Position numbers and translations under genes: made by a program
Shown here: positions 1,212-12,516 of the stretch, in pieces
Position numbering within the stretch: position 1 is the first letter of the stretch
How the letters are laid out: each line of letters begins with the position of its first letter
Notes under the pieces: generated by a model
The model's database searches: none
What the model saw: only the letters and a program-made list of their open reading frames with translations
Told to the model about the DNA's origin: nothing
Source of the DNA: a virus
Taxonomy: Duplodnaviria > Heunggongvirae > Uroviricota > Caudoviricetes > Herelleviridae
Direction: 5' to 3' (one strand)
Virus record (IMG/VR): IMGVR_UViG_3300027628_000013
DNA length: 12,516 nt

Positions 1212-2870
1212 ATGGACAACATCAGTAGTAGAGAGCTACAAGCTGTACTGGAAAAGAAAGACCCTGCATTATGGGCGCTTAAGCATAGATTCATTAAAGG
1301 AAACCCAATGACCTTTTTTAGTAATAAAACTGCACTGAAGCATAGACCGTGGCAGATTGACATACTGCGTGACCAACACCCTAACAAAACTGTACGTAAG
1401 TCACGTCAGTTAGGACTATCAGAAATGGCAATTACAGAGTTCATATGGTTCTTAGATACACATAATAACACCAAAGCAATGTACACGTTCCCACGTAAAG
1501 AGCAAATGGAGGATTTTAGTAACACTCGTATTGCTCCTATCTTTGAGGAATCTGAATACTTAATGACCACTCTTGATAAGAAAATGAACAACGTTCGTCT
1601 TAAAAAGATTAGAGATAGTGTACTCTTCCTACGTTCTGCATGGGGTTCGGGTTTAGGGGAGGGTGCCGATATCGACATCCTAGGTCTGGATGAGTATGAC
1701 CGTATGAAAGATAATGTAGAGGTAGCCTTCCAAGAGTCCCTAAAATCCTCTCACTACGGCTTCATGCGCAGATGGTCTACTCCTACTATACCTGGACGTG
1801 GCGTTGACTTCTTATTTCAAAAGTCTGACCAGCGTTTCTACTACCATAAGTGTGATAAATGTGGTCATTGGCAATTCCTAGACCCTGATAGCATCGTGTG
1901 TATTGATGACAAAAAGGTAGACATGATTAATGAAATTATTGATAACGGAGCATACCAGTTCCAGTGTAAGAGATGCCATAGGGAGCTTAACCGCTGGAAT
2001 CAGGGGGAATATGTAGCTCACTACCCAACTCGTAAGGACATCCGTGGTTATCACATTTCTCAGCTAGATGCTGTATGGATTAGTGCAGATGAAGTAATGC
2101 GTAACCAATTTGAGTACAAGTCAAAACAGCTATTCTATAACTACGTTATTGGAATACCTTATGCTTCTGAGGGTTTGATTATCACAGACCAAGATGTATA
2201 TAACTGTATTAAACACCAAGACCCAATTGGACACAGGGACTATTCTAAGTATAAGAGAATCGTAGCTGGGGTTGACTGGGGACATTTCAACTGGATGGTT
2301 GTGCTTGGGCTTACAGAAGATGATAGGGTTGACCTATTGGATTTGCATTGGGCTGAAGACAACCCACATAAACCCCTTGAATCGGTGAACCAGTTTGTTG
2401 CCTTATTAAAGCCTTATGACCCTGACGTTATAGTAGCAGATAATGGTTTCGGTGCTGATAGAAACTCTTACTTACTACAGCAGTTCCCTGCTAAAGTCTT
2501 TGCATGTGATTGGGATACTCCTAAGAACAATATTCCATTAGTAGATGCGTGGAGTGATGGCTCCCAACGTGTTCGTGTAGACAAAACTACTAAGATGAAA
2601 CGTACCCTTTATAATATCAAAGGTAGAGCACTTGGAGTGTTCAACATAAACGGTGAAGGTTCTGAAAAGCTTAAAATGCTTATAAAGCATTTAAAGAACG
2701 TTCGTACCATCGTAGAAGAAGATGAAGGTGAAATCTATGAGCGTGTAACACGTATTGGTGATGACCATTTAGCCTGTGCCCTTACTTATGGATACATTGC
2801 TCTTGACAGAATACTAGGTCTACACCTACCTCAGAACACTGATTTACTTGGAGACTACGAACGAATGTAA
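1212..2870 (+). CDS. terL: terminase large subunit, GpA/Herelleviridae type (552 aa)
   Basis: AGGAGG RBS; Walker A-like VRKSRQLGLSE; MYTFP; Walker B LGLDEYDRM; motif III WSTPT; CxxC...CxxC (CDKC, CKRC); RNase H-like nuclease motifs AGVDWG, VIVADNG and GDDH. Confidence 0.95.
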   Translation: MDNISSRELQAVLEKKDPALWALKHRFIKGNPMTFFSNKTALKHRPWQIDILRDQHPNKTVRKSRQLGLSEMAITEFIWFLDTHNNTKAMYTFPRKEQMEDFSNTRIAPIFEESEYLMTTLDKKMNNVRLKKIRDSVLFLRSAWGSGLGEGADIDILGLDEYDRMKDNVEVAFQESLKSSHYGFMRRWSTPTIPGRGVDFLFQKSDQRFYYHKCDKCGHWQFLDPDSIVCIDDKKVDMINEIIDNGAYQFQCKRCHRELNRWNQGEYVAHYPTRKDIRGYHISQLDAVWISADEVMRNQFEYKSKQLFYNYVIGIPYASEGLIITDQDVYNCIKHQDPIGHRDYSKYKRIVAGVDWGHFNWMVVLGLTEDDRVDLLDLHWAEDNPHKPLESVNQFVALLKPYDPDVIVADNGFGADRNSYLLQQFPAKVFACDWDTPKNNIPLVDAWSDGSQRVRVDKTTKMKRTLYNIKGRALGVFNINGEGSEKLKMLIKHLKNVRTIVEEDEGEIYERVTRIGDDHLACALTYGYIALDRILGLHLPQNTDLLGDYERM

Positions 2871-2886
2871 TATGGAGGTGAGGATT

Positions 2887-4533
2887 TTGGAACTTTATAT
2901 TGATTTAATCAAAGCAGAGCTGAACACAGCGAAGCTTGTTAAGAGAGCAGTACAGGTAAAAGGGAAAAACGGTCAAATGTTCACTAGGATGCAATGGGTT
3001 GACCCTAACGATGCCAGTACTGGTAATGGTACACGTCACATACAAAGCAAACTAGACTTCCAGATTGCTAAAGAGCATGGTATCATGAAACACCCTCATG
3101 CTGTTAAAGCTATGGCTGACCAAGGTGTTAAGATGGAGCACCACGATTGGGATAAACACCCCAGCTTTCATTTACCTGAGACTGAGGAGAGTGCCAAGCA
3201 TGCTAAGACAGAGGGCTTGATAAATCATACTCCTCATGGGGGTAAGGGTAATCAACATGACGACCCTGCTGTGCATAAAATGTTGGTGAAGCATGGTCTT
3301 CACCCACATATCCATGAAGTTGCTAAGGGATTCAATGATGCTATAGCTGGAGCTAAGGCTGACCCTGACTACGAAGAATACTCTCCAGAAACTAAGCATG
3401 AGGTTCTATTAGGGGCTGTAAATAGCCACATTCTAGAGCACTGGGATAAGGTTAGTGGTGCTCTTAAGGAGGAGATTAATGCAGACCCTGATACGGATTC
3501 AGTAATTAAGTTCACTAAGCTAGCGGCACTTAAGAGAACTACTAAGCATGAAGGTGCCATCCTAGCAGGAGTACATCCTCATTTAGCTCATGAAGCTGTA
3601 AACTCTATAGTAGGAGATGTGGACAAAGCCAATGGTTATAGGGGTGCACTAGCAACCTCTAACCTCACCATCAATGCTGACCACAGGGCATTGAAGCCCA
3701 TCATGAAAGAGGGATACAAGGCTTCCACTATGGAGGGGTATATACAGAAGACTATGGGTGATGAAGCGTGGTCACAAATGAATGATTGGTTAGCGGAAAA
3801 GACTACTCCTGAGATTATTGAAGCCATGGAAGATGATACTGAGTATGACTGGAGTGACGTTATAGACCGTATGCATGCGGAATACGACTCTATTGGGCTA
3901 GAAGCAGAGGACAACAAGCCAACATATGTAGCCTACAATGCAGGAGGTCACAAGGAAGGGGGAGCAGAGCACTTTGGTAGTGGTGTTATAAAGGTAGATG
4001 ACTCTATCTTGAAGCACTGTACAGCTACTTATGGTGACAGCTTCTTTGACACTCGTAACATTCCTAGCATTCATAGTATGGATCACCTAAAAGATGCGTT
4101 CCTTCTAAAACAAATAGGCAAAGGTAACCTAGCAGGGGAGTGGACTATGGGTAATGCAGAGGATGCCCTGATAGGTACAACAGCTCAGTCTATTCCAATA
4201 GAGCTTCAGTACCACCATCCTATGATTGAACCGCACCTAATGGAAATAGCTAACTACGGCTTAGGAAGTGTAGATGATGATTTTGCAGGAGAGGACATAG
4301 AGGATGGATTAGGAGACATATCAGACTTATTTGACGATGACGACTTCTCCTTATCAGACGATGACTTAGAGGAGTTAGGTGACTTTGAAGACTATGATGA
4401 CAGTGACGACCTATTTGATCAGTTAGAAGAAGCTGATTCTCCTATAGATGATGGTCTAGGTGACCTAGAGGATGATGACTTCGCAGATTGGGATACCTTA
4501 TTTGATGACCTAGAAGAGGAGGACAAAAAATGA
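2887..4533 (+). CDS. modular protein (548 aa): N-terminal LYIDLIKA motif, 28-aa basic hairpin module, His-rich region, divergent DUF3626-like domain, acidic tail; putative virion internal protein
   Basis: GGAGGTGA (2874-2881) 5 nt before TTG 2887 favours this start over 2848 or 2872. DUF3626-like motifs KPTYVAYN, HFGSG..K...CTATYGDS and IELQYH. 44 D/E in the last 91 residues. Confidence 0.75.
   Translation: MELYIDLIKAELNTAKLVKRAVQVKGKNGQMFTRMQWVDPNDASTGNGTRHIQSKLDFQIAKEHGIMKHPHAVKAMADQGVKMEHHDWDKHPSFHLPETEESAKHAKTEGLINHTPHGGKGNQHDDPAVHKMLVKHGLHPHIHEVAKGFNDAIAGAKADPDYEEYSPETKHEVLLGAVNSHILEHWDKVSGALKEEINADPDTDSVIKFTKLAALKRTTKHEGAILAGVHPHLAHEAVNSIVGDVDKANGYRGALATSNLTINADHRALKPIMKEGYKASTMEGYIQKTMGDEAWSQMNDWLAEKTTPEIIEAMEDDTEYDWSDVIDRMHAEYDSIGLEAEDNKPTYVAYNAGGHKEGGAEHFGSGVIKVDDSILKHCTATYGDSFFDTRNIPSIHSMDHLKDAFLLKQIGKGNLAGEWTMGNAEDALIGTTAQSIPIELQYHHPMIEPHLMEIANYGLGSVDDDFAGEDIEDGLGDISDLFDDDDFSLSDDDLEELGDFEDYDDSDDLFDQLEEADSPIDDGLGDLEDDDFADWDTLFDDLEEEDKK
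2923..3006 (+). repeat. 28-aa module NTAKLVKRAVQVKGKNGQ[MV]FTRMQWVDP, copy 1 (copy 2 at 5469-5552)
   Basis: 27/28 identical residues between the two ORFs. Confidence 0.95.
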
Positions 4534-7500
4534 CTAAGACACACATAGTAGCAGTTAATAGTGAGCGCACTCATGTAATCCTCAAAAGAGGACATCACTA
4601 TGCTTTAGTTAAAAGAAGACATGGTATTACAAGACATACAAAATGGGGAGGTCATAAAGTACTGAGTTCCCTAGTGACCAAGGGCAGTAGCTACAAGAAG
4701 CTTAAGAAGCCTAAGTTATACAAAGGTCATGATTTTGCTAAGTCTCAGGAGCTTACTATTGACTTAGAAAAGGGAAGAAAGTCTACTGGACGTGTAGACA
4801 AACAACCCGAACGTAAGTCTAAGCTAGACAATCTAGCTGAACAAATGAGCCTACAGAACTTTAAGCAAGACCTCATTGTACAGCAAGTTGTAAGCAAATC
4901 AGACGAATTAGTGATTGACTTGGAAAAGGCTGGAAAAGTTCATTTGCCACAAGGAGCGGAGCGTTTTGCCTATAAAGTTCCTAGTGAGCACGGTGTCATT
5001 TACATCCCTGTCAACCGCTTGAAGCAGGTTTATCAGACTGATGGAGCCTTAAACCCTAAGAAGATTAGTGAAAACCGCATGAAAATGCGTCAAGGTATTC
5101 CGTTGGAGCCTGTGGAAATTGGGTACAACTATGATGTACATGATGGTCACCATAGATGGCATGCGGCTATGGGTGAGGGGCATACCCACGTTCCTTGTAA
5201 GGTAAAAGGAACTGACCCTAAGAAACTAGCTGAAGCTAAACTGAACTATAGAGCTATTTGGAAGTCTACTTACGCTGAAGCAATGATGTGCAGAGATGTA
5301 GCAATTGCTAAAAGTTTAAGTAACCGTAATGACTTCTCAGTAGACCCAGCAGAAGAGGTAGAAAAGAAAAATAAGGCTAACTCAGAACATGCTCTTAAGC
5401 AGTTTTTAAGAGATTTAGGTATTGAGAAGTCTATCCCTCTAGTAATTGACATCACTAAAGGTCAGATTAACACAGCTAAACTAGTGAAGCGTGCTGTTCA
5501 GGTTAAAGGTAAGAACGGTCAGGTATTTACTCGTATGCAATGGGTAGACCCACATGACAAGGAAGCTATGGCAAAGACTAAGGCACCTGAGGAAGGTAAC
5601 CACTCTACTTTCTTACACCATGAGAAAGAGGTAAAGGAAATAGAAAGACGTCAGAGTAATAAGTTTCCTGTGCGCCACCATAAGACAGAAGACCTTAAGA
5701 ACACTAACCATAACTACCGTGTTGATAAGGACAAACTAGCTCAGGCAGAGAAGGATTATAAGGCTGGTAAGCACTTAGCTCCTGTCAAGATTAACCATAA
5801 AGGTGAAATCATTGACAACCACCACCTAGTAGACCTTGCTAAGAAGCATAAATTGTCTCATGTACCTGTAATGGTCTTTGGTAACCCTAGCATGAAGAAG
5901 GAGCTAGAGGAGAAGCTAAAAGACAAGGTTACTTATCACGATAAGGAAACTGGTGAAAAAGAGGTACTTGGTAAGCAAGGAAATGGTCACTTCTCACCAT
6001 ATGCATACGACAGAAATACTGAATATGCAACTCAACTTAAAGAGTTTGAGTCTATGGTTAAGCGCTTCCCTAGACAGCACGTAATGGATGAAGCCAAACG
6101 ACAAGGTATTGGGTGGAAATCTGATACAGACACTGGTAAAGAAGCTCCAGCACCTATTCAGTGGATGCGTGCAATGTCAGCTATCAAGAAACATATTACT
6201 ACAGGTGGTACTTTCGAGCTTAAGGAAGACCGCAAATTAATGAAGCAAAGAGCCAAAGAGCTAGGCAAGGGTAATGTTGATGTAGCATTCCAAGACCTTC
6301 TTGCTAAGCACGGTAATGACCGTGGTAAATTAATGGAGTGGGCTGATAGCAACGGTGTAGTTTGGAGACAAAAGAGTGACCCAGCTATTAACTGGATGTA
6401 TGCGGCTACTGCTATTAAGAAGGAATTAGCTAAAGGTAGGATGCTAGATGGAGTACGAACTCGTAACAAAGCTGATATGGCTGAAGCTAACCTTGTGGTC
6501 AGTGATAGTGTTAAAGCAATGGTTAAGAACATTGGTAAGAAGCATGACCGTGCAGACATCATGGAACGTATGATGGAGCTAGGTATCTCTTATGAAAACA
6601 CTAACAAGAAGGGTGAAGCATTACCTCAGAACTCTCCTATACTTTGGATGAGAGCTTCTACAGCTCTACAAAAGTATATAGCTCAGGGTAATCAGTTCCA
6701 TATGAAAGGTGAAGACCCTAATGCAGATGGTATCACTGCAACTCTAGGAAACTATGGTGATGGTAAGGTTTCTAAGTCTTCTGAAGTTGCATTGGACATT
6801 GCTAAGGCTAACAGTAAGAACTTTGAAGCACAGGCTAGTAAATGGGCTAAGAGAGCCTTTATGGTGGACTTTGGTGTAGAAGAAGGTAAGGCTGAAGAAA
6901 TGTACAAGGACTTCATGGAAAAGGCTAGAGGTACCAAGGTAATGGTTCACTTTGACCCACTAGAACAGCTCAAAGGCGGTACTAGTATGATAGACCAAAT
7001 GCTATCAGATGGAGTTATGAAGAATGACTTTGACCTTGATAGAGGGCATGACCAAGAGCATAAAGAGTCTATCGAAGCAGACCTCTACGGTGATGACTAT
7101 AATCCTAAGACTGATAGTGAGAGAGCGGTTTATGGGGTTGCGGATTTATTTAATCATGGAATCAATTCTTCTCCATATGGTGATGCGGCTATCACTCTTA
7201 AAGATGATGTAAGAAAGAGAACAACAGCGACACACTTAGATTCTAATAGCATTCCCTATGGTCAGGAAGGTAAGCAGGTCTACTCTATGGAAGACCCTCA
7301 CCACCTTCTAGTACAGAGATGGCATAGTCGTTGGAAAACTCCTAACAAGCCTGATGCACAGCGTAAACGTGCTATCGAGTCTGTTATCAATGGAACTCCT
7401 TACAAAGATGATAAGCGTTACTTTGAATCTCAAGTACACGGTACTATTGACTTTGCTAAGGACGTGGAGAACATCACTATACCTCAAGAGTGGAAGAATA

Positions 7501-7574
7501 AGGAGCATGCAGATAAGCACAGTAAGATTACTGAATTTGCTAACATGCACAACATTCCAATTAAGTATGAATAA
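4530..7574 (+). CDS. multidomain protein (1014 aa): two ParB/Srx-like domains, three W-M-R helical repeats, C-terminal DUF3626-like domain; putative virion internal polyprotein
   Basis: AGAGGAGG RBS and ATGA overlap. ParB-like DVHDGHHRWHAA...HVPC (4998-5210) and degenerate IIDNHHL...HVPV (5664-5882). DUF3626-like VMVHFDP, RAVYG, PYGDAAITLK..VRKRTTATHLDS and YFESQVHG..DFAKDV (6936-7490). Confidence 0.8.
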   Translation: MTKTHIVAVNSERTHVILKRGHHYALVKRRHGITRHTKWGGHKVLSSLVTKGSSYKKLKKPKLYKGHDFAKSQELTIDLEKGRKSTGRVDKQPERKSKLDNLAEQMSLQNFKQDLIVQQVVSKSDELVIDLEKAGKVHLPQGAERFAYKVPSEHGVIYIPVNRLKQVYQTDGALNPKKISENRMKMRQGIPLEPVEIGYNYDVHDGHHRWHAAMGEGHTHVPCKVKGTDPKKLAEAKLNYRAIWKSTYAEAMMCRDVAIAKSLSNRNDFSVDPAEEVEKKNKANSEHALKQFLRDLGIEKSIPLVIDITKGQINTAKLVKRAVQVKGKNGQVFTRMQWVDPHDKEAMAKTKAPEEGNHSTFLHHEKEVKEIERRQSNKFPVRHHKTEDLKNTNHNYRVDKDKLAQAEKDYKAGKHLAPVKINHKGEIIDNHHLVDLAKKHKLSHVPVMVFGNPSMKKELEEKLKDKVTYHDKETGEKEVLGKQGNGHFSPYAYDRNTEYATQLKEFESMVKRFPRQHVMDEAKRQGIGWKSDTDTGKEAPAPIQWMRAMSAIKKHITTGGTFELKEDRKLMKQRAKELGKGNVDVAFQDLLAKHGNDRGKLMEWADSNGVVWRQKSDPAINWMYAATAIKKELAKGRMLDGVRTRNKADMAEANLVVSDSVKAMVKNIGKKHDRADIMERMMELGISYENTNKKGEALPQNSPILWMRASTALQKYIAQGNQFHMKGEDPNADGITATLGNYGDGKVSKSSEVALDIAKANSKNFEAQASKWAKRAFMVDFGVEEGKAEEMYKDFMEKARGTKVMVHFDPLEQLKGGTSMIDQMLSDGVMKNDFDLDRGHDQEHKESIEADLYGDDYNPKTDSERAVYGVADLFNHGINSSPYGDAAITLKDDVRKRTTATHLDSNSIPYGQEGKQVYSMEDPHHLLVQRWHSRWKTPNKPDAQRKRAIESVINGTPYKDDKRYFESQVHGTIDFAKDVENITIPQEWKNKEHADKHSKITEFANMHNIPIKYE
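4734..6809 (+). repeat. four dispersed 14-aa repeats, hydrophobic-x-KS-xx-[LV]-x-[IL]D[LI]-x-K[AG]
   Basis: FAKSQELTIDLEKG (4734-4775), VSKSDELVIDLEKA (4890-4931), IEKSIPLVIDITKG (5421-5462), VSKSSEVALDIAKA (6768-6809). A half-site ELYIDLIKA lies at 2890-2916. Confidence 0.85.
6072..6698 (+). repeat. three ~45-50-aa helical W-M-R repeats (fourth copy at 9428-9553)
   Basis: Consensus R-x2-[VLI][ML][DE]-x5-G[IV]-x-[WY]...[IV]-x-WM[RY]-x3-A[IL]-x-K-x-[IL] at 6072-6215, 6321-6446 and 6549-6698. Confidence 0.85.
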
Positions 7575-7585
7575 GGAGGATTAGG

Positions 7586-7858
7586 ATGAAGGTACTAGCA
7601 ATCAAGCCTACAGCTGACATATTCTCAGCTAAGGCAATATATGAAAAGAACGGTAAGTTATACTTGAGAAGTGGTAAGGATGGGTTTACGGAGGGTCAGC
7701 CCCTCCAAACCACCTTATCAGGAGCTACAGCAAAGTGGGGTTTTCGTAAGGTAATGAACCCACCTGAGTTTAGGGACGGAAATGAGCTGAAACAGAACAT
7801 CCCTAACTTCAGTATGAACAGTGATGGTAGCATTCAGTTTAATAGCTCTATTCTATAG
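7586..7858 (+). CDS. hypothetical protein (90 aa)
   Basis: AAGGAGG RBS upstream; last gene before a terminator. Confidence 0.8.
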   Translation: MKVLAIKPTADIFSAKAIYEKNGKLYLRSGKDGFTEGQPLQTTLSGATAKWGFRKVMNPPEFRDGNELKQNIPNFSMNSDGSIQFNSSIL

Positions 7859-7891
7859 GGGGTGAAGCTTTCGGGCTTCCCTCCTTTTTTT
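7857..7891 (+). terminator. intrinsic terminator
   Basis: GC-rich stem GAAGCT-TTCG-GGCTTC extended by GGGGG/CCTCC (one bulge), followed by T7. Confidence 0.9.
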
Positions 7892-7924
7892 ATGTCAAGA
7901 AGACGATGAGGGGAGACGGTCAGT

Positions 7925-8848
7925 GTGAGTAATGTTTTGAAAGCACCACCATATAATCCAGACCTAACCATCGAGAACTCTACAAAAGAAGAATTTATGA
8001 TGAACAGCATACGTTTAATATATCATGCAATGAAACGATACCAATGGTTTATAAATAATACATTTATAGAAGAGGGAGACCTTTTCTCTATAGGTTACAT
8101 AGGTCTTGACAAGGCTTATGAAAACTTCGACCCTAGCTATGGAGTTAAGTTTTCCACATATGCAGTTCCTAAGATAATGGGAGAGTTCCAAAGAACTGTA
8201 AGAGACTTTGACCCAGGAGCTAAGTTTCCTAGAATATGTAAAGAGATAGGTGCTTCCATACTGAAGCTTCTAGCTTCTAAGGACTTGGACTTAATGGACG
8301 TTGCCCCTGAATGGATTGCTGAGGAGCTAGAAAAGGATATCAAAGATGTAAAATCATCCTTGGTGTATCTAGAGTACAGAAAGTGCATAAATATAGGGTC
8401 TCCTATGTTTAAAAGTGAAGACAGCAAGACCCTAACTCTTGAAGATATGCTGGAAGACACTAGAATAGAGGATGTTGACAGGTCTGTAATCCTAGACGAC
8501 TTTAAGTCCAATCTAACTGAGAGAGACAGAAGGATACTAGACATGTACTTGACTGGCAGATATACTCAATACGATATTGGTGATATCATTGGCATGTCTC
8601 AGGTGCAGGTTAGTAGAATCCTAACTAAAATAGAGAGACTAGCCAGTAAGTACAACGATGGCTTTAACATTAAACAAAACACTAAATGGTCTAGGGACTC
8701 TAAAGAAGGTACTCCTGAGAAAGAAAAGGCTATTGAAATGCTAAAAGCAGGTAAACATACTATGGCTAGCATTGCAAGAACCTGTAACGTAGCTGAAAGT
8801 ACTGTATCACGTTGGAGGAAAAAATTAGAAGCCCAAGGCTTTATTTAA
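7925..8848 (+). CDS. RNA polymerase sigma factor, SigF/SigG/SigB-like, with extra C-terminal HTH (307 aa)
   Basis: Region 2 DLFSIGYIGLDKAYENFDPSYGVKFSTYAVPKIMGEFQRTVRD; region 4 LTERDRRIL...TQYDIGDIIGMSQVQVSRIL; GTG start with GAGGGGA RBS. Confidence 0.92.
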   Translation: MSNVLKAPPYNPDLTIENSTKEEFMMNSIRLIYHAMKRYQWFINNTFIEEGDLFSIGYIGLDKAYENFDPSYGVKFSTYAVPKIMGEFQRTVRDFDPGAKFPRICKEIGASILKLLASKDLDLMDVAPEWIAEELEKDIKDVKSSLVYLEYRKCINIGSPMFKSEDSKTLTLEDMLEDTRIEDVDRSVILDDFKSNLTERDRRILDMYLTGRYTQYDIGDIIGMSQVQVSRILTKIERLASKYNDGFNIKQNTKWSRDSKEGTPEKEKAIEMLKAGKHTMASIARTCNVAESTVSRWRKKLEAQGFI

Positions 8849-8864
8849 AGTGAACTGCCTGTGA

Positions 8865-8892
8865 TTGACGAGAGTAAGAAATCACCTAGAAT
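8865..8892 (+). promoter_or_regulatory. candidate sigma-A promoter
   Basis: TTGACG (8865-8870), 16 nt spacer, TAGAAT (8887-8892). Confidence 0.45.
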
Positions 8893-8950
8893 TACATAGA
8901 CCCTCTGTAGTCATGGGCAGACTATACTATGAGAAGGTGGAGAAGACAAT

Positions 8951-9322
8951 ATGAATTTTTTAGATTATGCTAGTGCAACGTATGCACACAGAACAGATGA
9001 CAACCACATTATTACAACGTTAGACTTTGTTTCTACTAGAGGTAGCTACAATATCTTTGAGGTACAGTCAGAGGAAGATTATGTAGTAATCTTTGAGAAC
9101 CAACCTAAGCTAATTAACCTAGTTAAGCAATACCCAAATGCTCTGTTTGCTATTAAACTGATTAAAGCAGATGACCGCATTCACAAGTATAAAACTAAGC
9201 TGAGTAACGACAGTGACAAAGTTGATGTATACACTGTAGGATTCATTGGGGTGTTAGCTAACCCTGACGAGGGTGAAGTCATTGGGCTTTCTACTCTAGG
9301 GGCAACCTTCAAGACAGTATAA
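8951..9322 (+). CDS. hypothetical protein (123 aa)
   Basis: Purine-rich RBS (AAGGTGGAG) upstream; followed by a terminator; no recognisable motif. Confidence 0.75.
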   Translation: MNFLDYASATYAHRTDDNHIITTLDFVSTRGSYNIFEVQSEEDYVVIFENQPKLINLVKQYPNALFAIKLIKADDRIHKYKTKLSNDSDKVDVYTVGFIGVLANPDEGEVIGLSTLGATFKTV

Positions 9323-9333
9323 TATTACTCATA

Positions 9334-9366
9334 ACACTCCTGGATATTAAATCTAGGAGTGTTTTT
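9334..9366 (+). terminator. intrinsic terminator
   Basis: 12-bp stem ACACTCCTGGAT / ATCTAGGAGTGT (one G-U pair), 5-nt loop, then TTTT. Confidence 0.7.
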
Positions 9367-9385
9367 ATATGTAAGGAGGGATAAA

Positions 9386-9853
9386 ATGACTAGCCATCAC
9401 TATAAAGTATTAACAAGTGCGTTCAGTCGTACCCATCTGTTAGACCAAGGCACTAAGAATGGGGTACGTTGGGAAGAGAATGGTCATGAGGGTGTTAACT
9501 GGATGAGGTTTAGTAATGCCTTAGACAAACACTTATCTGCTAATCAGCCCTTCCATACTGATGATGCAGACGTACAAACATTAAAGCAAATGCACCAACA
9601 GTATACCCAAATTAGAGAAACTCATAAGAAGACCATGATTCCTCATGTAAGAGGAGCTATGCAACGTCTTAAAGAGAAGGATACAACTGGTATGGGTAGG
9701 CACCATACTGAATACCTGCAACAAGCATATGCTCATCTAGATGCAAATGGTGGTCATCATTGGGCTGAGAAGGTAAGCACCCTACACCATCTTAACAGTA
9801 AGATAAAGGGGTTAACAGAACGACTCTCCGCTAAGGGAGTAGAGATGAAGTAG
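9386..9853 (+). CDS. His-rich protein (155 aa) with one W-M-R repeat
   Basis: Start moved from 9359 to ATG 9386 (AAGGAGGG RBS). RTHLLD..GVRW..GVNWMRFSNALDKHL matches the repeats of the 1014-aa protein. 16 His. Confidence 0.8.
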   Translation: MTSHHYKVLTSAFSRTHLLDQGTKNGVRWEENGHEGVNWMRFSNALDKHLSANQPFHTDDADVQTLKQMHQQYTQIRETHKKTMIPHVRGAMQRLKEKDTTGMGRHHTEYLQQAYAHLDANGGHHWAEKVSTLHHLNSKIKGLTERLSAKGVEMK

Positions 9854-9877
9854 GGGCTAAGGCTCCTACTTATTTTT
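9848..9877 (+). terminator. intrinsic terminator
   Basis: 10-bp stem AAGTAGGGGC-TAAG-GCTCCTACTT followed by ATTTTT. Confidence 0.85.
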
Positions 9878-9894: not shown

Positions 9895-9923
9895 TTGACA
9901 GAATTCTCCTTTCATGTAATAAT
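9895..9923 (+). promoter_or_regulatory. sigma-A promoter with extended -10
   Basis: TTGACA (9895-9900), 17 nt spacer, AATAAT (9918-9923), with TG at 9915-9916. Confidence 0.7.
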
Positions 9924-9970: not shown

Positions 9971-10615
9971 GTGGAGAAGTCCAAGAAGCAATATGTGGAT
10001 AGTCAAGTTATTAGACAAGAGGAAGCTAAGAGGGAGCAGGAGGAGCACAAGCGTTTTGGTACTACTGGAGCTAAAGAACTTATGAAAGCTGGTGGTATCA
10101 AGGAAGCGGCAGTAGTATTCTCACACGAAGGTATGAATGCCTTTGCTACTATGTTTGCCAACTCTACAGAAGCTAGTGTTCAGAAAGCATTATCTAATCT
10201 AGAGCCTATGATTGAAAGAATAATTGAACAGAAACTTATTGAAATGCTTGAAGGAGCAACCCAAGGCATACAGGAATTTCTAGCAAGTTCTATGCAGGTT
10301 TCCGCTGAAAAGCAGGTTCAAGGTGTTATGGAAGGTTTGCTTGAGAAAACAGAAAAACAGCCCATTAAACGCCCCAAAAAGGACAAGCCTATCAAGGCTA
10401 GAACTAAACTTAAGAACAGTGAGATTATACTTTCTGTATTGCAAGAAGCTGGCAAGGAGCTTACTGTAAATGAGATATCTAAGATAGCAGAGGAAAAATA
10501 TGGTAAGAAATGGAATAATCCATCCTCTCCTATACTTTATGCTACTCAAAGGTATCCTGATAATATAATCAACATCAGTTACGGTCTATATATGTATAAG
10601 GGAGAAAATTCTTGA
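9971..10615 (+). CDS. DNA-binding protein with C-terminal Rok-like winged helix (214 aa)
   Basis: Helical N-terminus, basic linker KQPIKRPKKDKPIKARTKLK, and C-terminal EIILSVL..NEISK.AEEKYG..NN..YPD..YGLY..GE that aligns by eye with the B. subtilis Rok DNA-binding domain. The start codon is uncertain. Confidence 0.6.
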   Translation: MEKSKKQYVDSQVIRQEEAKREQEEHKRFGTTGAKELMKAGGIKEAAVVFSHEGMNAFATMFANSTEASVQKALSNLEPMIERIIEQKLIEMLEGATQGIQEFLASSMQVSAEKQVQGVMEGLLEKTEKQPIKRPKKDKPIKARTKLKNSEIILSVLQEAGKELTVNEISKIAEEKYGKKWNNPSSPILYATQRYPDNIINISYGLYMYKGENS

Positions 10616-10633
10616 TTTTGAGTTTTAATTAAA

Positions 10634-11580
10634 GCACAGAGCGGTTGAGACACACCGCTGACGAGTAGAGTTTATCTCTACTCCGTACTGAGGCTCTGCC
10701 CCATACCTGTTCGAGTCAGGGGCTTCGCTTAGGAGTAGCTCTCTTTGGTGAAAGCAGTTATGGCAACTATGGGTAGCATCCCTGAGACCGTAGGTTCGAT
10801 TCCTGCGGAGGGTCTAGCTAACTTCTCCTATCCTTGGAGGGGTCTCAGTATGGAGTAGATTACTACTTCAAATATTATCACCTTGGGTAGTTGTTGGTCA
10901 GGGCAGGATATAGCCCCGAAATATATCTTAAGACTTGGATAGTTGACAGTAACTATCAAAACTACCACAGAGTAGGACGGTGCTCTTTATCCCGCTTGGG
11001 GGACGATAAAAACATACCAAGTGATATCCAGTTCAGGGAGTCTCCTGTTCCAACCGTCACTGTTATACAATACATGAAGGTACCTCTTGGGGTGTGTAGG
11101 TACATATTTAGGGATACGTATCCCTCCTCCTTTGGGAGGAAATCACCCCTTACAATATGGGAGAGTGGCGGAATTTGGTAGACGCACCCACGATGGGAAG
11201 GGGTAATAATTCCTAGGTCTAAATAACTCTGTGTAGGTTCGAGTCCTACTTCTCCCACCACTACTATTGCATAGAGCTTTTAATGAAAGTTGTATGGAGC
11301 AGTAATGTTCTAGGTGTACGGATAATACACCTTGTATTGTGTTGTAAGGTATCTTCGTCCCGAAGAGATGTGGTATAGATGTCGTGGAAAGCATCTATAC
11401 GGAGCGGTAGAGGGCTTGGGAACCCTCTATATTCTGATATATTGCAAACTAAGTATGAAGAGGTTACAGCGTACCTTAGGGAATGAACTCTTTGTGCCTA
11501 GTTTGGAGTATGTGAGATGCTCCACGTCTAATAAATTCATATATTGTCTTCAGCTGGATAGACCTTTCACCTATCCAGCA
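10634..11580 (+). ncRNA. large structured ncRNA, candidate GOLLD/ROOL-like
   Basis: About 950 nt with no credible ORF, more than 15 hairpins, nested long-range helices (10876-10886/11017-11026, 11068-11078/11536-11546, 11148-11158/11339-11349), T-loops and candidate pseudoknots; adjacent to a phage tRNA cluster. Ends and family are uncertain. Confidence 0.6.
11159..11260 (+). ncRNA. tRNA-Leu-like RNA lacking a canonical anticodon arm
   Basis: Acceptor GGGAGAG/TTCTCCC, A73, CCA; Leu-type D arm GCG-GAATTTGGTAGA-CGC; T arm GTAGG-TTCGAGT-CCTAC; three small hairpins replace the anticodon and variable arms. Confidence 0.75.
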
Positions 11581-11585
11581 CTCCT

Positions 11586-11661
11586 TGTCCATTAGCTCAG
11601 TTGGTAGAGCGCTTGACTGTTAATCAAGATGTCACTGGTTCGAGCCCAGTATGGACAGCCA
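11586..11661 (+). tRNA. trnN: tRNA-Asn(GTT)
   Basis: TGTCCAT/ATGGACA acceptor; anticodon arm CTTGA-CTGTTAA-TCAAG; T loop TTCGAGC; G73; encoded CCA. Confidence 0.97.
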
Positions 11662-11664
11662 TAT

Positions 11665-11752
11665 GGAGAGTTACTCAAGCGGCTTAAGAGGACAGGTTGC
11701 TACCTTGTTAGGCGCTTTATAGCGTGCATGGGTTCGAATCCCATACTCTCCT
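11665..11752 (+). tRNA. trnS: tRNA-Ser(GCT)
   Basis: GGAGAGT/ACTCTCC acceptor; ACAGG-TTGCTAC-CTTGT; long variable arm; ATGGG-TTCGAAT-CCCAT; no encoded CCA. Confidence 0.92.
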
Positions 11753-11754
11753 TT

Positions 11755-11825
11755 ATCCCTATAGTGTAGCGGTAGCACTACAGTCTCCAAAACTGTCAGG
11801 CTAGGTTCGAACCCTAGTAGGGGTG
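11755..11825 (+). tRNA. trnW: tRNA-Trp(CCA)
   Basis: ATCCCTA/TAGGGGT acceptor; ACAGT-CTCCAAA-ACTGT; CTAGG-TTCGAAC-CCTAG; G73; no encoded CCA. Confidence 0.93.
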
Positions 11826-11828
11826 CTT

Positions 11829-11952
11829 GTTCCGTTAGTGTAAGTGGTGCACACTTTGCCCAATATTAACCGCTTTTATAGGACTGTGCTTGGTCGTATT
11901 CTTGTCGGGTTGAAGGCTGGTAGAGTAGGTTCGATTCCTGCACGGAACACCA
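11829..11952 (+). ncRNA. tRNA-like RNA with a 54-nt insert in place of the anticodon loop
   Basis: GTTCCGT/ACGGAAC acceptor, A73, CCA; D arm GTGT-AAGTGGTGC-ACAC; T arm GTAGG-TTCGATT-CCTGC; weak anticodon stem TTGCC/GGCTG enclosing 11861-11914. Confidence 0.75.
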
Positions 11953-12013
11953 AAATATAATATTTACTCAATCCAGTTAAGGGGTATCTGGTAATAAATA
12001 CCCCACCTATATT

Positions 12014-12089
12014 GGAGCTTTAGCTTAATTGGTAAAGCCCCCTGCTCATAACAGGGTTTATACAGATTCGAGTTCTGTAGGCTCCACCA
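12014..12089 (+). tRNA. tRNA with CAT anticodon, probably Ile2 (elongator Met not excluded)
   Basis: GGAGCTT/AGGCTCC acceptor; CCCTG-CTCATAA-CAGGG; encoded CCA. Paired G1-C72 and no triple G-C anticodon stem exclude an initiator. The GGA.CTT acceptor and CTCATAA loop resemble Bacillus tRNA-Ile2. Confidence 0.85.
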
Positions 12090-12094
12090 ACAAT

Positions 12095-12166
12095 GCCCCT
12101 ATGGTGTAACGGATAGCACAACAGGCTTCTATCCTGTTAGTCTGAGTTCGAGTCTTAGTAGGGGCG
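12095..12166 (+). tRNA. trnR: tRNA-Arg(TCT)
   Basis: GCCCCTA/TAGGGGC acceptor; ACAGG-CTTCTAT-CCTGT; D loop GGATA (A20); no encoded CCA. Confidence 0.94.
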
Positions 12167-12213
12167 TTTCCTTATGCTTTTTAGGGAGAAAATAGAATAC
12201 AGGAGATGATACC

Positions 12214-12516
12214 ATGCAAAACCGTAGTAATACTGACGTTTTTGGTATTGATGTTTCTAATCACCAAGGTGATATTAATTGGGTGGATGTAGCTAAGAGC
12301 GGTGTTAAATTTGTATATCTTAAGCTTACTGAAGGTCAGACTTTCCTAGACAAAAGGGCTTATCAGAACTACTTTGGTGCTAAGAATGCTGGTTTGCGTG
12401 TAGGTTTTTACTGCTTTTCTCACGTTACTAATGACCCTAAGAAAGAAGTAGATTTCTTTTTAAAGAAGTTAGGTGAGATGAAAGCTGACCTGCCACACGT
12501 TCTTGACTTAGAGGAT
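12214..12516 (+). CDS. endolysin, GH25 muramidase (5' partial, runs off the window; missing from the ORF track)
   Basis: AGGAGA RBS; translates as MQNRSNTDVFGIDVSNHQGDINW...FVYLKLTEG...GFYCF...LPHVLDLED, with the GH25 DVS, K.TEG and DxE motifs. Confidence 0.92.
   Translation, partial: MQNRSNTDVFGIDVSNHQGDINWVDVAKSGVKFVYLKLTEGQTFLDKRAYQNYFGAKNAGLRVGFYCFSHVTNDPKKEVDFFLKKLGEMKADLPHVLDLED

Follow-up and report, generated by a model that had tools for sequence, protein, structure and literature searches.

Two SopF-type ADP-ribosyltransferase proteins encoded behind the terminase gene of a SPO1-like phage as candidate head-packaged effectors

Proteins injected by a phage together with its DNA decide the first minutes of the infection, that is, the shut-off of the host and the escape from its defense, and they are hard to recognize by sequence outside T4, P1, N4 and phiKZ-type phages. 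Are such proteins encoded next to the terminase gene of a SPO1-like myophage? The question is raised by a stretch of 12,516 nucleotides (the window) from the IMG/VR virus record IMGVR_UViG_3300027628_000013, in which the gene of the terminase large subunit, terL, is followed by the genes of a 548-aa (p548), a 1014-aa (p1014), a 90-aa (p90) and a 155-aa (p155) protein. An earlier note on this DNA had proposed that all four are built from one kit of signals and domains and are packaged into the head, cut by the prohead protease and ejected with the DNA. We found that p548 and p1014 contain ADP-ribosyltransferase (ART) domains of the type of the Salmonella effector SopF and share a short lysine-bounded tag with proteins encoded beside the portal gene. 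For these two proteins, a role as head-packaged, protease-cut and injected effectors is the best available explanation, with a probability of roughly 55%.

The terL operon and its shared modules

The following genes and signals define the locus (coordinates in the window, strand where assigned):

1166-1189: terminator-like hairpin, just 5' of terL
1212..2870, + strand: terL, terminase large subunit, first gene of the operon (PHROG 675, E 3e-185; Pfam GpA_ATPase)
2887..4533, + strand: p548, 548 aa, with a 9-aa leader, basic hairpin, His-rich region, divergent SopF-like ART and acidic tail
4530..7574, + strand: p1014, 1014 aa, a multidomain ('polyvalent') protein (PHROG 26588, E 7e-251; 35 full-length relatives)
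7586..7858, + strand: p90, 90 aa, small conserved partner that, by prediction, binds at the active site of the ART
7864..7879, + strand: terminator-like hairpin closing the terL-p548-p1014-p90 unit (weak stem, 6 pairs)
9386..9853, + strand: p155, 155 aa (PHROG 22909, E 3e-51)

The p548 gene starts with a TTG codon at 2887, 16 nt behind the terL stop at 2870, and the Shine-Dalgarno sequence GGAGGTGA lies 6 nt upstream of this start. The stop codon of p548 overlaps the start of p1014, p90 starts 12 nt after p1014, and no gap among the four genes exceeds 16 nt. Terminator-like hairpins are found only at the bounds of the unit (1166-1189 and 7864-7879). Judged by this arrangement, terL, p548, p1014 and p90 are one tight operon. 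p548 and p1014 would be late proteins because they would be co-expressed with the terminase, the timing itself being read from the operon structure only. An ART and a nuclease made late would have an obvious use only if they were carried to the next cell, as is Alt of phage T4.

All of the best p1014 relatives belong to the Herelleviridae, subfamily Spounavirinae. The best one, from Exiguobacterium phage vB_EalM-132 (EalM-132), is 45% identical over the full length, those of Bacillus phages CP-51, JL, Shanette and S4-1 are 43% identical, and SPO1 and its kin match at 60% identity in the nuclease part only; a comparison of SPO1 with the 1014-aa protein gave no match beyond that part. A search of the phage collection for DNA nearly identical to the window gave 0 matches. 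The nearest DNA record is a 13-kb IMG/VR fragment (82-90% DNA identity), and a p1014 homologue of 85% identity is encoded on an 86-kb JGI contig. The gene order of the window (terL - p548 - p1014 - p90 - sigma - p123 - p155 - p214 - five tRNAs - GH25 lysin) is syntenic with that of SPO1 (gp2 - terL (2.11) - ParB nuclease (2.12) - sigma (2.21) - 2.22 - 2.31 - tRNAs - lysin). A p1014 homologue is encoded directly after terL (in the window, after p548) in this phage, EalM-132 and SPO1, and is displaced in JL by an insertion of small genes. At this position SPO1 has only the nuclease part, gp2.12. The comparison therefore marks p548, most of p1014, p90 and p155 as additions relative to SPO1.

An all-against-all BLAST comparison of the window proteins aligned residues 304-343 of p1014 with residues 3-42 of p548 at 80% identity over 40 aa (E 4e-16). 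The DNA copies of this block, which contains a basic hairpin, are 82% identical and differ mostly at synonymous sites, indicating that the 40-aa peptide has been kept by selection and was not copied recently. The other matches were a weak one between p1014 783-905 and p548 273-385, and those of three p1014 segments to p155 6-68; nothing in the window matched p90. A motif of the form K-S-x(2-3)-hydrophobic strand-K-[GA] occurs in four copies in p1014 (K81, K133, K310 and K759) and once, at the N-terminus, in p548 (K9). Repeats with a W-M-R signature are present three times in p1014 (residues ~513-559, 590-636 and 674-720) and once in p155 (7-53). The His content is 6.2% in p548, 4.8% in p1014, 10.3% in p155 and 0% in p90, compared with 0.7-3.3% in most neighbors in the window and 5.2% in the small neighbor p77.

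All four open reading frames (ORFs) of the earlier note are present as it described them, and its hairpin block shared by p548 and p1014 and its DUF3626 assignments (see below) held. The kit itself, however, is common to p548, p1014 and p155 in pairs rather than to all four proteins. The W-M-R repeats do not extend to p548 and p90, the lysine motif is missing from p155 and p90, and the His richness stops short of p90. p90 has to be dropped from the kit, since BLAST gave no similarity for it and it contains neither His nor a K-[SGA] site. p155, which had been credited with the lysine motif and the hairpin, has neither and shares only the repeat and the His richness.

Enzyme domains of p548 and p1014 and the partner protein p90

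SopF, the Salmonella effector in which DUF3626 is found (PMC6682159), is an ART; its catalytic triad is I-Y-E and its structures are 7DN8 and 7DN9 (PMC10333799). The regions of p548 and p1014 related to DUF3626, and the tail that follows in p548, are:

6837..7571, + strand: p1014 SopF-family (DUF3626) ART, aa 770-1014, with H807, R865, Y868 and E966 (Pfam, 36.7 bits)
3559..4236, + strand: p548 DUF3626/SopF-like ART, aa ~225-450, with T-I-N263, P-T-Y347 and I-E439-L-Q-Y-H (Pfam, 26 bits)
4249..4530, + strand: p548 Asp/Glu-rich tail, aa 455-548; the tail is acidic in most family members

The cut-off of the Pfam family (PF12294) is 27 bits, which p1014 exceeds and p548 alone just misses. A full-library HMMER search with p1014 770-1014 gave 129 relatives, and a 60-sequence DUF3626 profile made from p1014 relatives matched SopF (7DN8/7DN9) at E 1e-26. 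The p548 family (11 sequences) was aligned by hhalign with the DUF3626 profile at 96.5% probability and E 8e-10. Single-sequence searches of the PDB with p548 and p1014 gave 0 matches. The AlphaFold2 model of p1014 770-1014 had a mean predicted local distance difference test score (pLDDT) of 96.2, and Foldseek placed SopF first among its structural neighbors (E 7e-10, template modeling score (TM) 0.65), followed by DarT, CopC/OspC3, CteC and Tpt1, all with the ART fold. We regard it as near certain that both p548 and p1014 carry SopF-type ART domains.

Residues R865, Y868, G869 and E966 of p1014 occupy invariant or nearly invariant columns, with the Tyr and the Glu invariant in the 60 sequences. 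E966 falls opposite the Glu of SopF for which the NAD-bound entry 7DN9 has Asp, and H807 was aligned with the Asn of the SopF sequence T-I-N-F. With these residues the p1014 domain looks catalytically complete, as far as can be predicted. In the p548 family T-I-N263, P-T-Y347 and I-E439-L-Q-Y-H are invariant, the triad positions are I262/N263, Y347 and E439, and Lys replaces Arg before the Tyr; by its alignment the p548 domain is divergent, but its key Tyr and Glu are conserved. Asp and Glu make up 21% of the whole p548. Outside the clade, DUF3626 is fused to the head-internal domain Phage_Mu_F (protein P0058) and to a second ART, ADPrib_exo_Tox (P0072), and the former fusion is an independent precedent for a DUF3626 ART as capsid cargo.

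Upstream of its ART, p1014 contains the following domains:

4929..5264, + strand: ParB/Srx nuclease domain 1, aa 134-245, DGHHR, ending at K245, which is followed by S (PHROG 26754, E 1e-64)
5661..5894, + strand: probable degenerate second ParB/Srx-like domain, aa 378-455, DNHHL (PHROG 620, E 8e-5)
6057..6704, + strand: three W-M-R repeats, aa ~510-725, probably related to SPO1 gp51

The profile of the first ParB/Srx domain matched sulfiredoxin, Noc and ParB at E 0.005-0.02; its D-G-H-H is invariant, it is 60% identical to SPO1 gp2.12, and PF02195 is recorded for 19 p1014 relatives. The second ParB-like domain is weak (Pfam ParBc_2 at E 1.1 only), a profile of p1014 296-480 found nothing significant in the PDB, and the reading DNHHL means that the Arg of the motif has been lost. 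The basic, His-rich N-terminal extension of p1014 (aa 1-70; 4530-4739) is poorly conserved in the family; some p1014 relatives and SPO1 gp2.12 do not have it and start at the first IDLxK motif.

The consensus of the W-M-R repeats is K..LM..A...GI.W...P.NS.ILWMRA..AI..HI..G. Pfam family PF26856 (Phage_SPO1_gp51) is recorded for seven listed proteins, six p1014 relatives and P0040, and faintly for one. SPO1 gp51 appears to consist of two W-M-R-type units, both found by a single regular expression; hhalign aligned the repeat profile with gp51 at 49% probability and E 1.7e-4, and pairwise BLAST of gp51 against p155 and against p1014 was negative. In the AlphaFold2 model the W-M-R region forms helical units (pLDDT 85). 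Foldseek found 0 matches to it in the PDB with E <= 0.001, a feature search of the ESM Atlas gave no usable match, and the wide VIA-align search gave weak rows only (Z <=4.8), among them SAP and LEM domains and the SAP region of FAN1. These rows are a hint, and not a finding, that the repeat might be a helix-extension-helix module. gp51 belongs to the host-takeover module of SPO1 and is implicated in the shut-off of host RNA and DNA synthesis (PMC6873191). p1014 thus combines a nuclease, gp51-like repeats and an ART in one polypeptide. p155, with one gp51-like repeat (aa 7-53) and no K-[SGA] site, is flanked by strong terminator-like hairpins (9333-9363 and 9848-9871). It is best read as a free-standing gp51-like paralogue, apparently transcribed separately, and probably acts in the cytoplasm.

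A homologue of p90 is encoded directly 3' of every p1014 homologue examined. The word-based homologue search found two close relatives of p90 only, and the more distant ones were taken from synteny. When the p90 family was co-folded with the p1014 ART, the score was 0.83, compared with 0.01 for the best of three controls. This level was reached by 58 of 80 solved complexes and by 2 of 110 mismatched pairs, counts that are only approximate here because our own alignments were used for the p90 co-fold. The three runs agreed in at least 94% of contacts, and the pLDDT of the partner was at least 89. The predicted interface includes Y868, residues 882-885 and E966 of the ART and K50-W51-G52 of p90. 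The model supports, but does not show, a position of p90 in the ART active site as an inhibitor or a chaperone. We know of no solved complex of this kind.

The predicted occlusion of catalytic residues (0.83 against 0.01) and the constant place of p90 as the next gene after p1014 would also be expected of a toxin-immunity or addiction-type pair that acts in superinfection exclusion or in competition between phages and not, after injection, in the takeover of the host, and DUF3626 does occur in very large multidomain proteins (2203-7260 aa), some of which have other toxin-type domains. However, the pair belongs to the terL operon of a genome of strictly lytic type, the ART is joined to tagged modules that recur in portal-proximal proteins (see below), and the second ART-like domain, that of p548, has no small partner next to it. 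We therefore consider such a pair improbable; it would in any case be compatible with packaging and is thus only partly a rival of the cargo explanation.

A tag shared with portal-proximal proteins and the prohead protease

The lysine motif and the basic hairpin form a module that is present at the following places:

2887..3012, + strand: p548 aa 1-42, leader (M)ELYIDLIK then A (candidate targeting peptide and cut site), then the basic hairpin
4737..4772, + strand: p1014 module 1, aa 70-81, K71 then S ... IDLEK81 then G; K81 in 24 of 34 relatives
4893..4928, + strand: p1014 module 2, aa 122-133, K123 then S ... VIDLEK133 then A, directly before the nuclease
5424..5558, + strand: p1014 module 3 and hairpin, aa 299-343, K300 then S ... 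VIDITK310 then G, then the hairpin
6771..6806, + strand: p1014 module 4, aa 748-759, K749 then S ... LDIAK759 then A, directly before the ART

Each hairpin is preceded by a hydrophobic strand ending in Lys, which is followed by Gly, Ala or Ser, and the internal copies of the module usually have a second K-S or K-A ~10 residues upstream. Leader and hairpin of p548 contain invariant columns in its 11-member family. Among 34 relatives of p1014, K123 and K133 are conserved in 32, K245 followed by S in 33, and K310 with a small residue after it in all 34; conserved Lys-small bonds bracket the nuclease domain (134-245) and precede the hairpin. The sequence M-x-L-x-I-D-L-x-K with a small residue after it also forms the N-termini of p548, JL gp86, SPO1 gp2.12 and gp5.3, and some p1014 relatives.

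Motif and hairpin together were found in 48 distinct proteins. The hairpin is present in gp32, gp68, gp86, gp87 and, weakly, gp89 of JL, in gp43, gp44, gp60, gp61 and, in a variant form, gp63 of EalM-132, and in gp5.3 of SPO1. JL gp86-gp89, EalM-132 gp60-gp63 and SPO1 gp5.3 are encoded immediately upstream of the portal - protease - scaffold - capsid genes, and the same holds for the close relative of the window. Pfam found no families in JL gp86, gp87, gp88, gp89 and gp32. JL gp89 and SPO1 gp5.3 are small and extremely Lys-rich, as DNA-associated proteins inside the head would be expected to be. When IMG/VR was scanned with a 39-sequence module profile, 59 loci were obtained, in which every hairpin ORF belonged to the p548/gp32, p1014/gp68, gp86 or gp87 family, indicating that the module is confined to this phage clade and, within it, to a few proteins that are always the same. 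The modularity of the kit is seen in P0040, where the hairpin and two W-M-R repeats are combined with a PARP-type ART in place of DUF3626. Three metagenomic proteins of 1430-1480 aa (P0014, P0015 and P0017) have two hairpin or K-motif modules and are apparent fusions of a p548-like and a p1014-like protein.

A strict eight-residue form of the motif has 7-9 matches per ~55,000 aa, and of the seven in JL four are in hairpin proteins and one is in the protease. This bears on the suspicion that the shared kit is an artefact of composition or chance in Lys- and His-rich sequence. The kit proteins are rich in both residues, and short K-[SGA] motifs are common, including in neighbors such as the 214-aa Rok-like protein. 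Nevertheless, such an origin is hardly credible given the rarity of the strict motif with four of its seven JL matches in kit proteins, the 80% identity of the hairpin block over 40 aa (E 4e-16), the conservation of the hairpin residues and K310 throughout the 34-sequence family, and domain assignments that are significant at the level of both profile and structure.

The prohead protease of JL/EalM-132-type relatives is assigned by Pfam to Peptidase S78. This family includes gp4 of HK97, which cuts the capsid protein gp5 at Lys103/Ser104 and whose C-terminal tail is a capsid-targeting element. The presumptive site of the protease is hydrophobic-x-Lys followed by Ser, Gly or Ala. Among the ORFs of at least 100 aa in JL and EalM-132, none is denser in hydrophobic-x-K-[SG] than the scaffold, which has 13 sites, or 4.8 per 100 aa, against a proteome mean of 0.42 (~11-fold), and its KS counts are 11-13, with 2.5-2.7 expected from composition. 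In the contig closest to the window the scaffold has 13 sites and 12 KS (2.0 expected). The S78 protease is second or third in the ranking by site density. The scaffold genes are:

9237-10052 of L010 (JL)
11064-11873 of L012 (EalM-132)
19329-20147 of L089 (close relative)

The C-terminus of the protease reads K-S-x(4-5)-L-x-x-Y-L-Q-L-x-K-G in JL, EalM-132, SPO1 and the close relative, the same layout as that of the cargo module. Capsid proteins read L-N-K then A-L at residues 24-28. In a Staphylococcus relative, the 439-aa chain of PDB entry 9ROW starts, at the homologous position, right after V-V-K24 of the 463-aa capsid protein of 5LII, indicating that its mature N-terminus is made by a Lys/Ser cut. 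From these observations we infer that Lys-small is the bond cut by the prohead protease. The capsid protein was rejected as a carrier of the full IDLxK motif; only the minimal hydrophobic-x-K-A form is present. The portal N-termini of JL, EalM-132 and the close relative (L089) have one or two hydrophobic-x-K-[SG] sites, for example T-L-E-K-S-E-R, which suggests that the portal may be trimmed at its N-terminus as well.

Could p548 and p1014 be cytoplasmic late enzymes that are never packaged, with the K-motif and hairpin as a DNA-binding or assembly module and any cleavage incidental? The ParB nuclease would then help the terminase to process concatemers or would degrade host DNA, and the ARTs would modify components of the host or the phage. 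ParB-like nucleases are often found beside terminases, and SPO1 keeps its nuclease gp2.12 alone at this place; the strongly basic hairpin and the weak SAP/LEM-like matches of the W-M-R region suggest DNA binding; and gp51 is an early cytoplasmic host-takeover protein (PMC6873191). However, unpackaged enzymes would leave unexplained why the same tag is placed on four otherwise unrelated families, two of them beside the portal, why it copies part of the C-terminal protease sequence and has at its end the bond enriched in the scaffold, why at domain borders a Lys-small bond stands on either side of the internal copies, and why an inhibitor-like partner would be needed. The fusion of DUF3626 to MuF elsewhere also speaks for the capsid. 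On balance, we find a purely cytoplasmic role rather unlikely.

As cargo of the head, p548 and p1014 might work as follows. A short module, K-[S] - hydrophobic strand (L-x-I-D-L-x) - K-[G/A/S], stands in front of each effector unit, and its strand would act as a capsid-targeting peptide, like the capsid-targeting sequence (CTS) of T4 or the C-terminal tail of the HK97 protease. The flanking Lys-small bonds would be cut by the S78 prohead protease within the procapsid. The cut would remove the 9-aa leader of p548 and divide p1014, giving one fragment with the nuclease (134-245) and another with hairpin, repeats and ART (311-1014), the latter probably being cut again at 759/760 in the window phage. 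Carried inside the head, the fragments would pass along with the DNA into the next host, where they would ADP-ribosylate a host protein or nucleic acid and nick or degrade DNA ahead of phage gene expression, while p90 would keep the ART silent in the producing cell or serve as its chaperone. Packaging, cleavage, ejection, the targets of the enzymes and the inhibition by p90 are all steps that we infer from the modules and their surroundings.

Several observations weigh against this explanation. Scans of the window with consensus patterns of SPO1-type late (CGTTAGA...GATATT) and middle (AGGAGA...TTTNTTT) promoters gave no match, which leaves the operon structure as the sole ground for late expression. 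The position beside terL is not universal, with ~35 small genes between terL-gp32 and gp68 in JL. The K-small form of K749 and K759 is found only in the closest relatives, the small residue being kept in 3 of 34, and unrelated proteins, too, contain the strict motif, 3-7 times per genome. The specificity of the protease was deduced from the enrichment of sites and one deposited mature chain, and the p90-ART result is a model confidence obtained with a shallow alignment of 8 rows. Finally, ParB-like nucleases beside terminases could serve the packaging of DNA and not an attack on the host.

The claim of effector cargo therefore stands, as an explanation, for p548 and p1014, which combine effector-type enzymes, a place in the terL operon, the tag of portal-proximal proteins and a MuF fusion of the same ART family. 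It does not extend to p90 and p155, neither of which has a tag or a candidate cut site, and p155 lies between terminators of its own. More tentatively, the tag may be a portable peptide code of SPO1-like phages, a hydrophobic strand between Lys-small bonds that is copied from the protease tail and often has a basic hairpin behind it; such a code would load a set of enzymes into the head and have them cut free there, with p90 plugging the ART until loading. The cargo predicted by such a code, to be held as tentatively as the code itself, would comprise the two SopF-type ARTs, the ParB nuclease, the gp51-like repeat proteins and the gp86, gp87 and gp89 families.

Neighboring genes and comparison with known systems

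Two further genes lie between p90 and p155:

7925-8848: sigma-70-family factor with regions 2 and 4 and an extra C-terminal HTH_23, at the position of SPO1 gp2.21
8951-9322: 123-aa gene (p123), SPO1 gp2.22-like

The nearest relative fragment (G001) matches the window DNA at 82-90% identity on both sides of the sigma factor (7925-8848) but not within that stretch. Downstream of p155, a 214-aa protein (9971-10615) has a weak Rok winged-helix match (Pfam WH_Rok, E 2e-4), and its N-terminal part resembles SPO1 gp2.31. The best sigma-A-like promoter of the window (9895-9923; TTGACA-17-AATAAT with TG, 11/12) lies 5' of this gene, so that the Rok-like gene is probably early. The ~970 nt between it and the tRNA cluster (10616-11585) contain no + strand ORF of at least 100 aa, only short ORFs of up to 99 aa, and Rfam at the gathering threshold gave 0 matches there. 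ARAGORN found five tRNA genes in 11586-12167 (Asn-GTT, Ser-GCT, Trp-CCA, Met-CAT and Arg-TCT); Rfam gave four, missing the Met gene at 12014-12089. The window ends (12214-12516) with the start of a GH25-type lysin, whose homologue in the close relative has Glyco_hydro_25 and PG_binding_1. In the JL record KC595512.2 (1-6105), the annotated 16.3-kb terminal repeat would take in terL and gp32, which would be unusual, the terminal redundancy of SPO1-like phages normally carrying host-takeover genes.

If the cargo explanation is true, head cargo becomes predictable across a clade of SPO1-like Bacillus and Exiguobacterium phages, and a 'cargo manifest' could for the first time be read for a Gram-positive myophage. 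Members with bacterial targets would for the first time join the SopF ART family, of which only an effector directed at eukaryotes is known, the unexplained SPO1 takeover protein gp51 would be linked to an enzyme, and a simple short tag would be at hand for loading chosen foreign proteins into Herelleviridae capsids. The earlier note had known of no description of this combination. The concept itself is a known one, with precedents in polyvalent proteins (PMC5512222) and in T4 Alt and internal proteins. What our searches did not find described is the signal set, namely the protease-tail-like tag with double Lys-small bonds, together with SopF-type ARTs in SPO1-like phages, the gp51 link and the predicted active-site partner.

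The SopF-type ART of p1014 shares with SopF itself the Pfam family and the fold and keeps R-P-x-Y, Y-G, D-S and Y-x-E-x-x-I-H-G, including the catalytic Glu, at ~10-12% sequence identity between SopF and the p1014 ART in the structural alignment. SopF, in contrast, is type III secreted, needs host ARF GTPases and modifies a subunit of the eukaryotic V-ATPase, a cofactor and a target not present in bacteria, and its triad is I-Y-E, whereas p1014 with H807 is closer to the canonical H-Y-E. In SPO1, gp2.12 is the counterpart of p1014 residues 74-246 in sequence (60% identity) and position and has the same N-terminal IDLxK motif, and gp51 appears to resemble the repeat region in having two copies of the W-M-R-type repeat. 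These are small separate genes, gp51 being an early gene within the terminal redundancy, whereas in p1014 the repeats are fused with an ART.

T4 makes Alt, which is an ART, and the internal proteins IPI-III late in infection, places them in the prohead and injects them together with its DNA. In the internal proteins an N-terminal peptide of ~10 residues ends at a cut site of the prohead protease, and this protease, gp21, cuts after Glu (L/I-x-E). The tag of the window phage has no sequence relation to the T4 CTS, and its candidate bond follows Lys, not Glu; it is also found internally, between two cut sites and often with a basic hairpin after it, and the ART is of another family. HK97 has a protease of the same family that cuts after Lys before a small residue, and a short C-terminal segment of this protease directs encapsidation, as the corresponding segment may do in SPO1-like phages. 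We know of no description of the reuse of a protease targeting segment on cargo proteins.

The nearest class is that of the polyvalent proteins of phages and conjugative elements (Iyer, Burroughs, Anand, de Souza and Aravind 2017, PMC5512222), in which T4 Alt is also summarized; a full-text search for 'DUF3626' did not return this paper. Like p548 and p1014, these are large phage proteins that string together effector domains, ParB-type nucleases and ARTs among them, and have their genes next to those for packaging and the head. As would be the case for p548 and p1014, it is predicted that they are packaged, processed and passed on along with the DNA. Pfam and PHROGs did not find in p548 and p1014 the zincin-like metallopeptidase or papain-like peptidase that is frequent, but not obligatory, in this class; instead, the candidate cut sites fit the prohead protease, the ART is of the SopF/DUF3626 type and the ParB domain is of the SPO1 gp2.12 type. 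The MuF-fused polymorphic toxins of temperate phages, reportedly described by Jamet et al. in 2017, reach the capsid by fusion to a head-internal domain, and one DUF3626-Phage_Mu_F fusion (P0058) is of that design. p548 and p1014 have no MuF domain, and in them a short peptide tag would take the place of the carrier.

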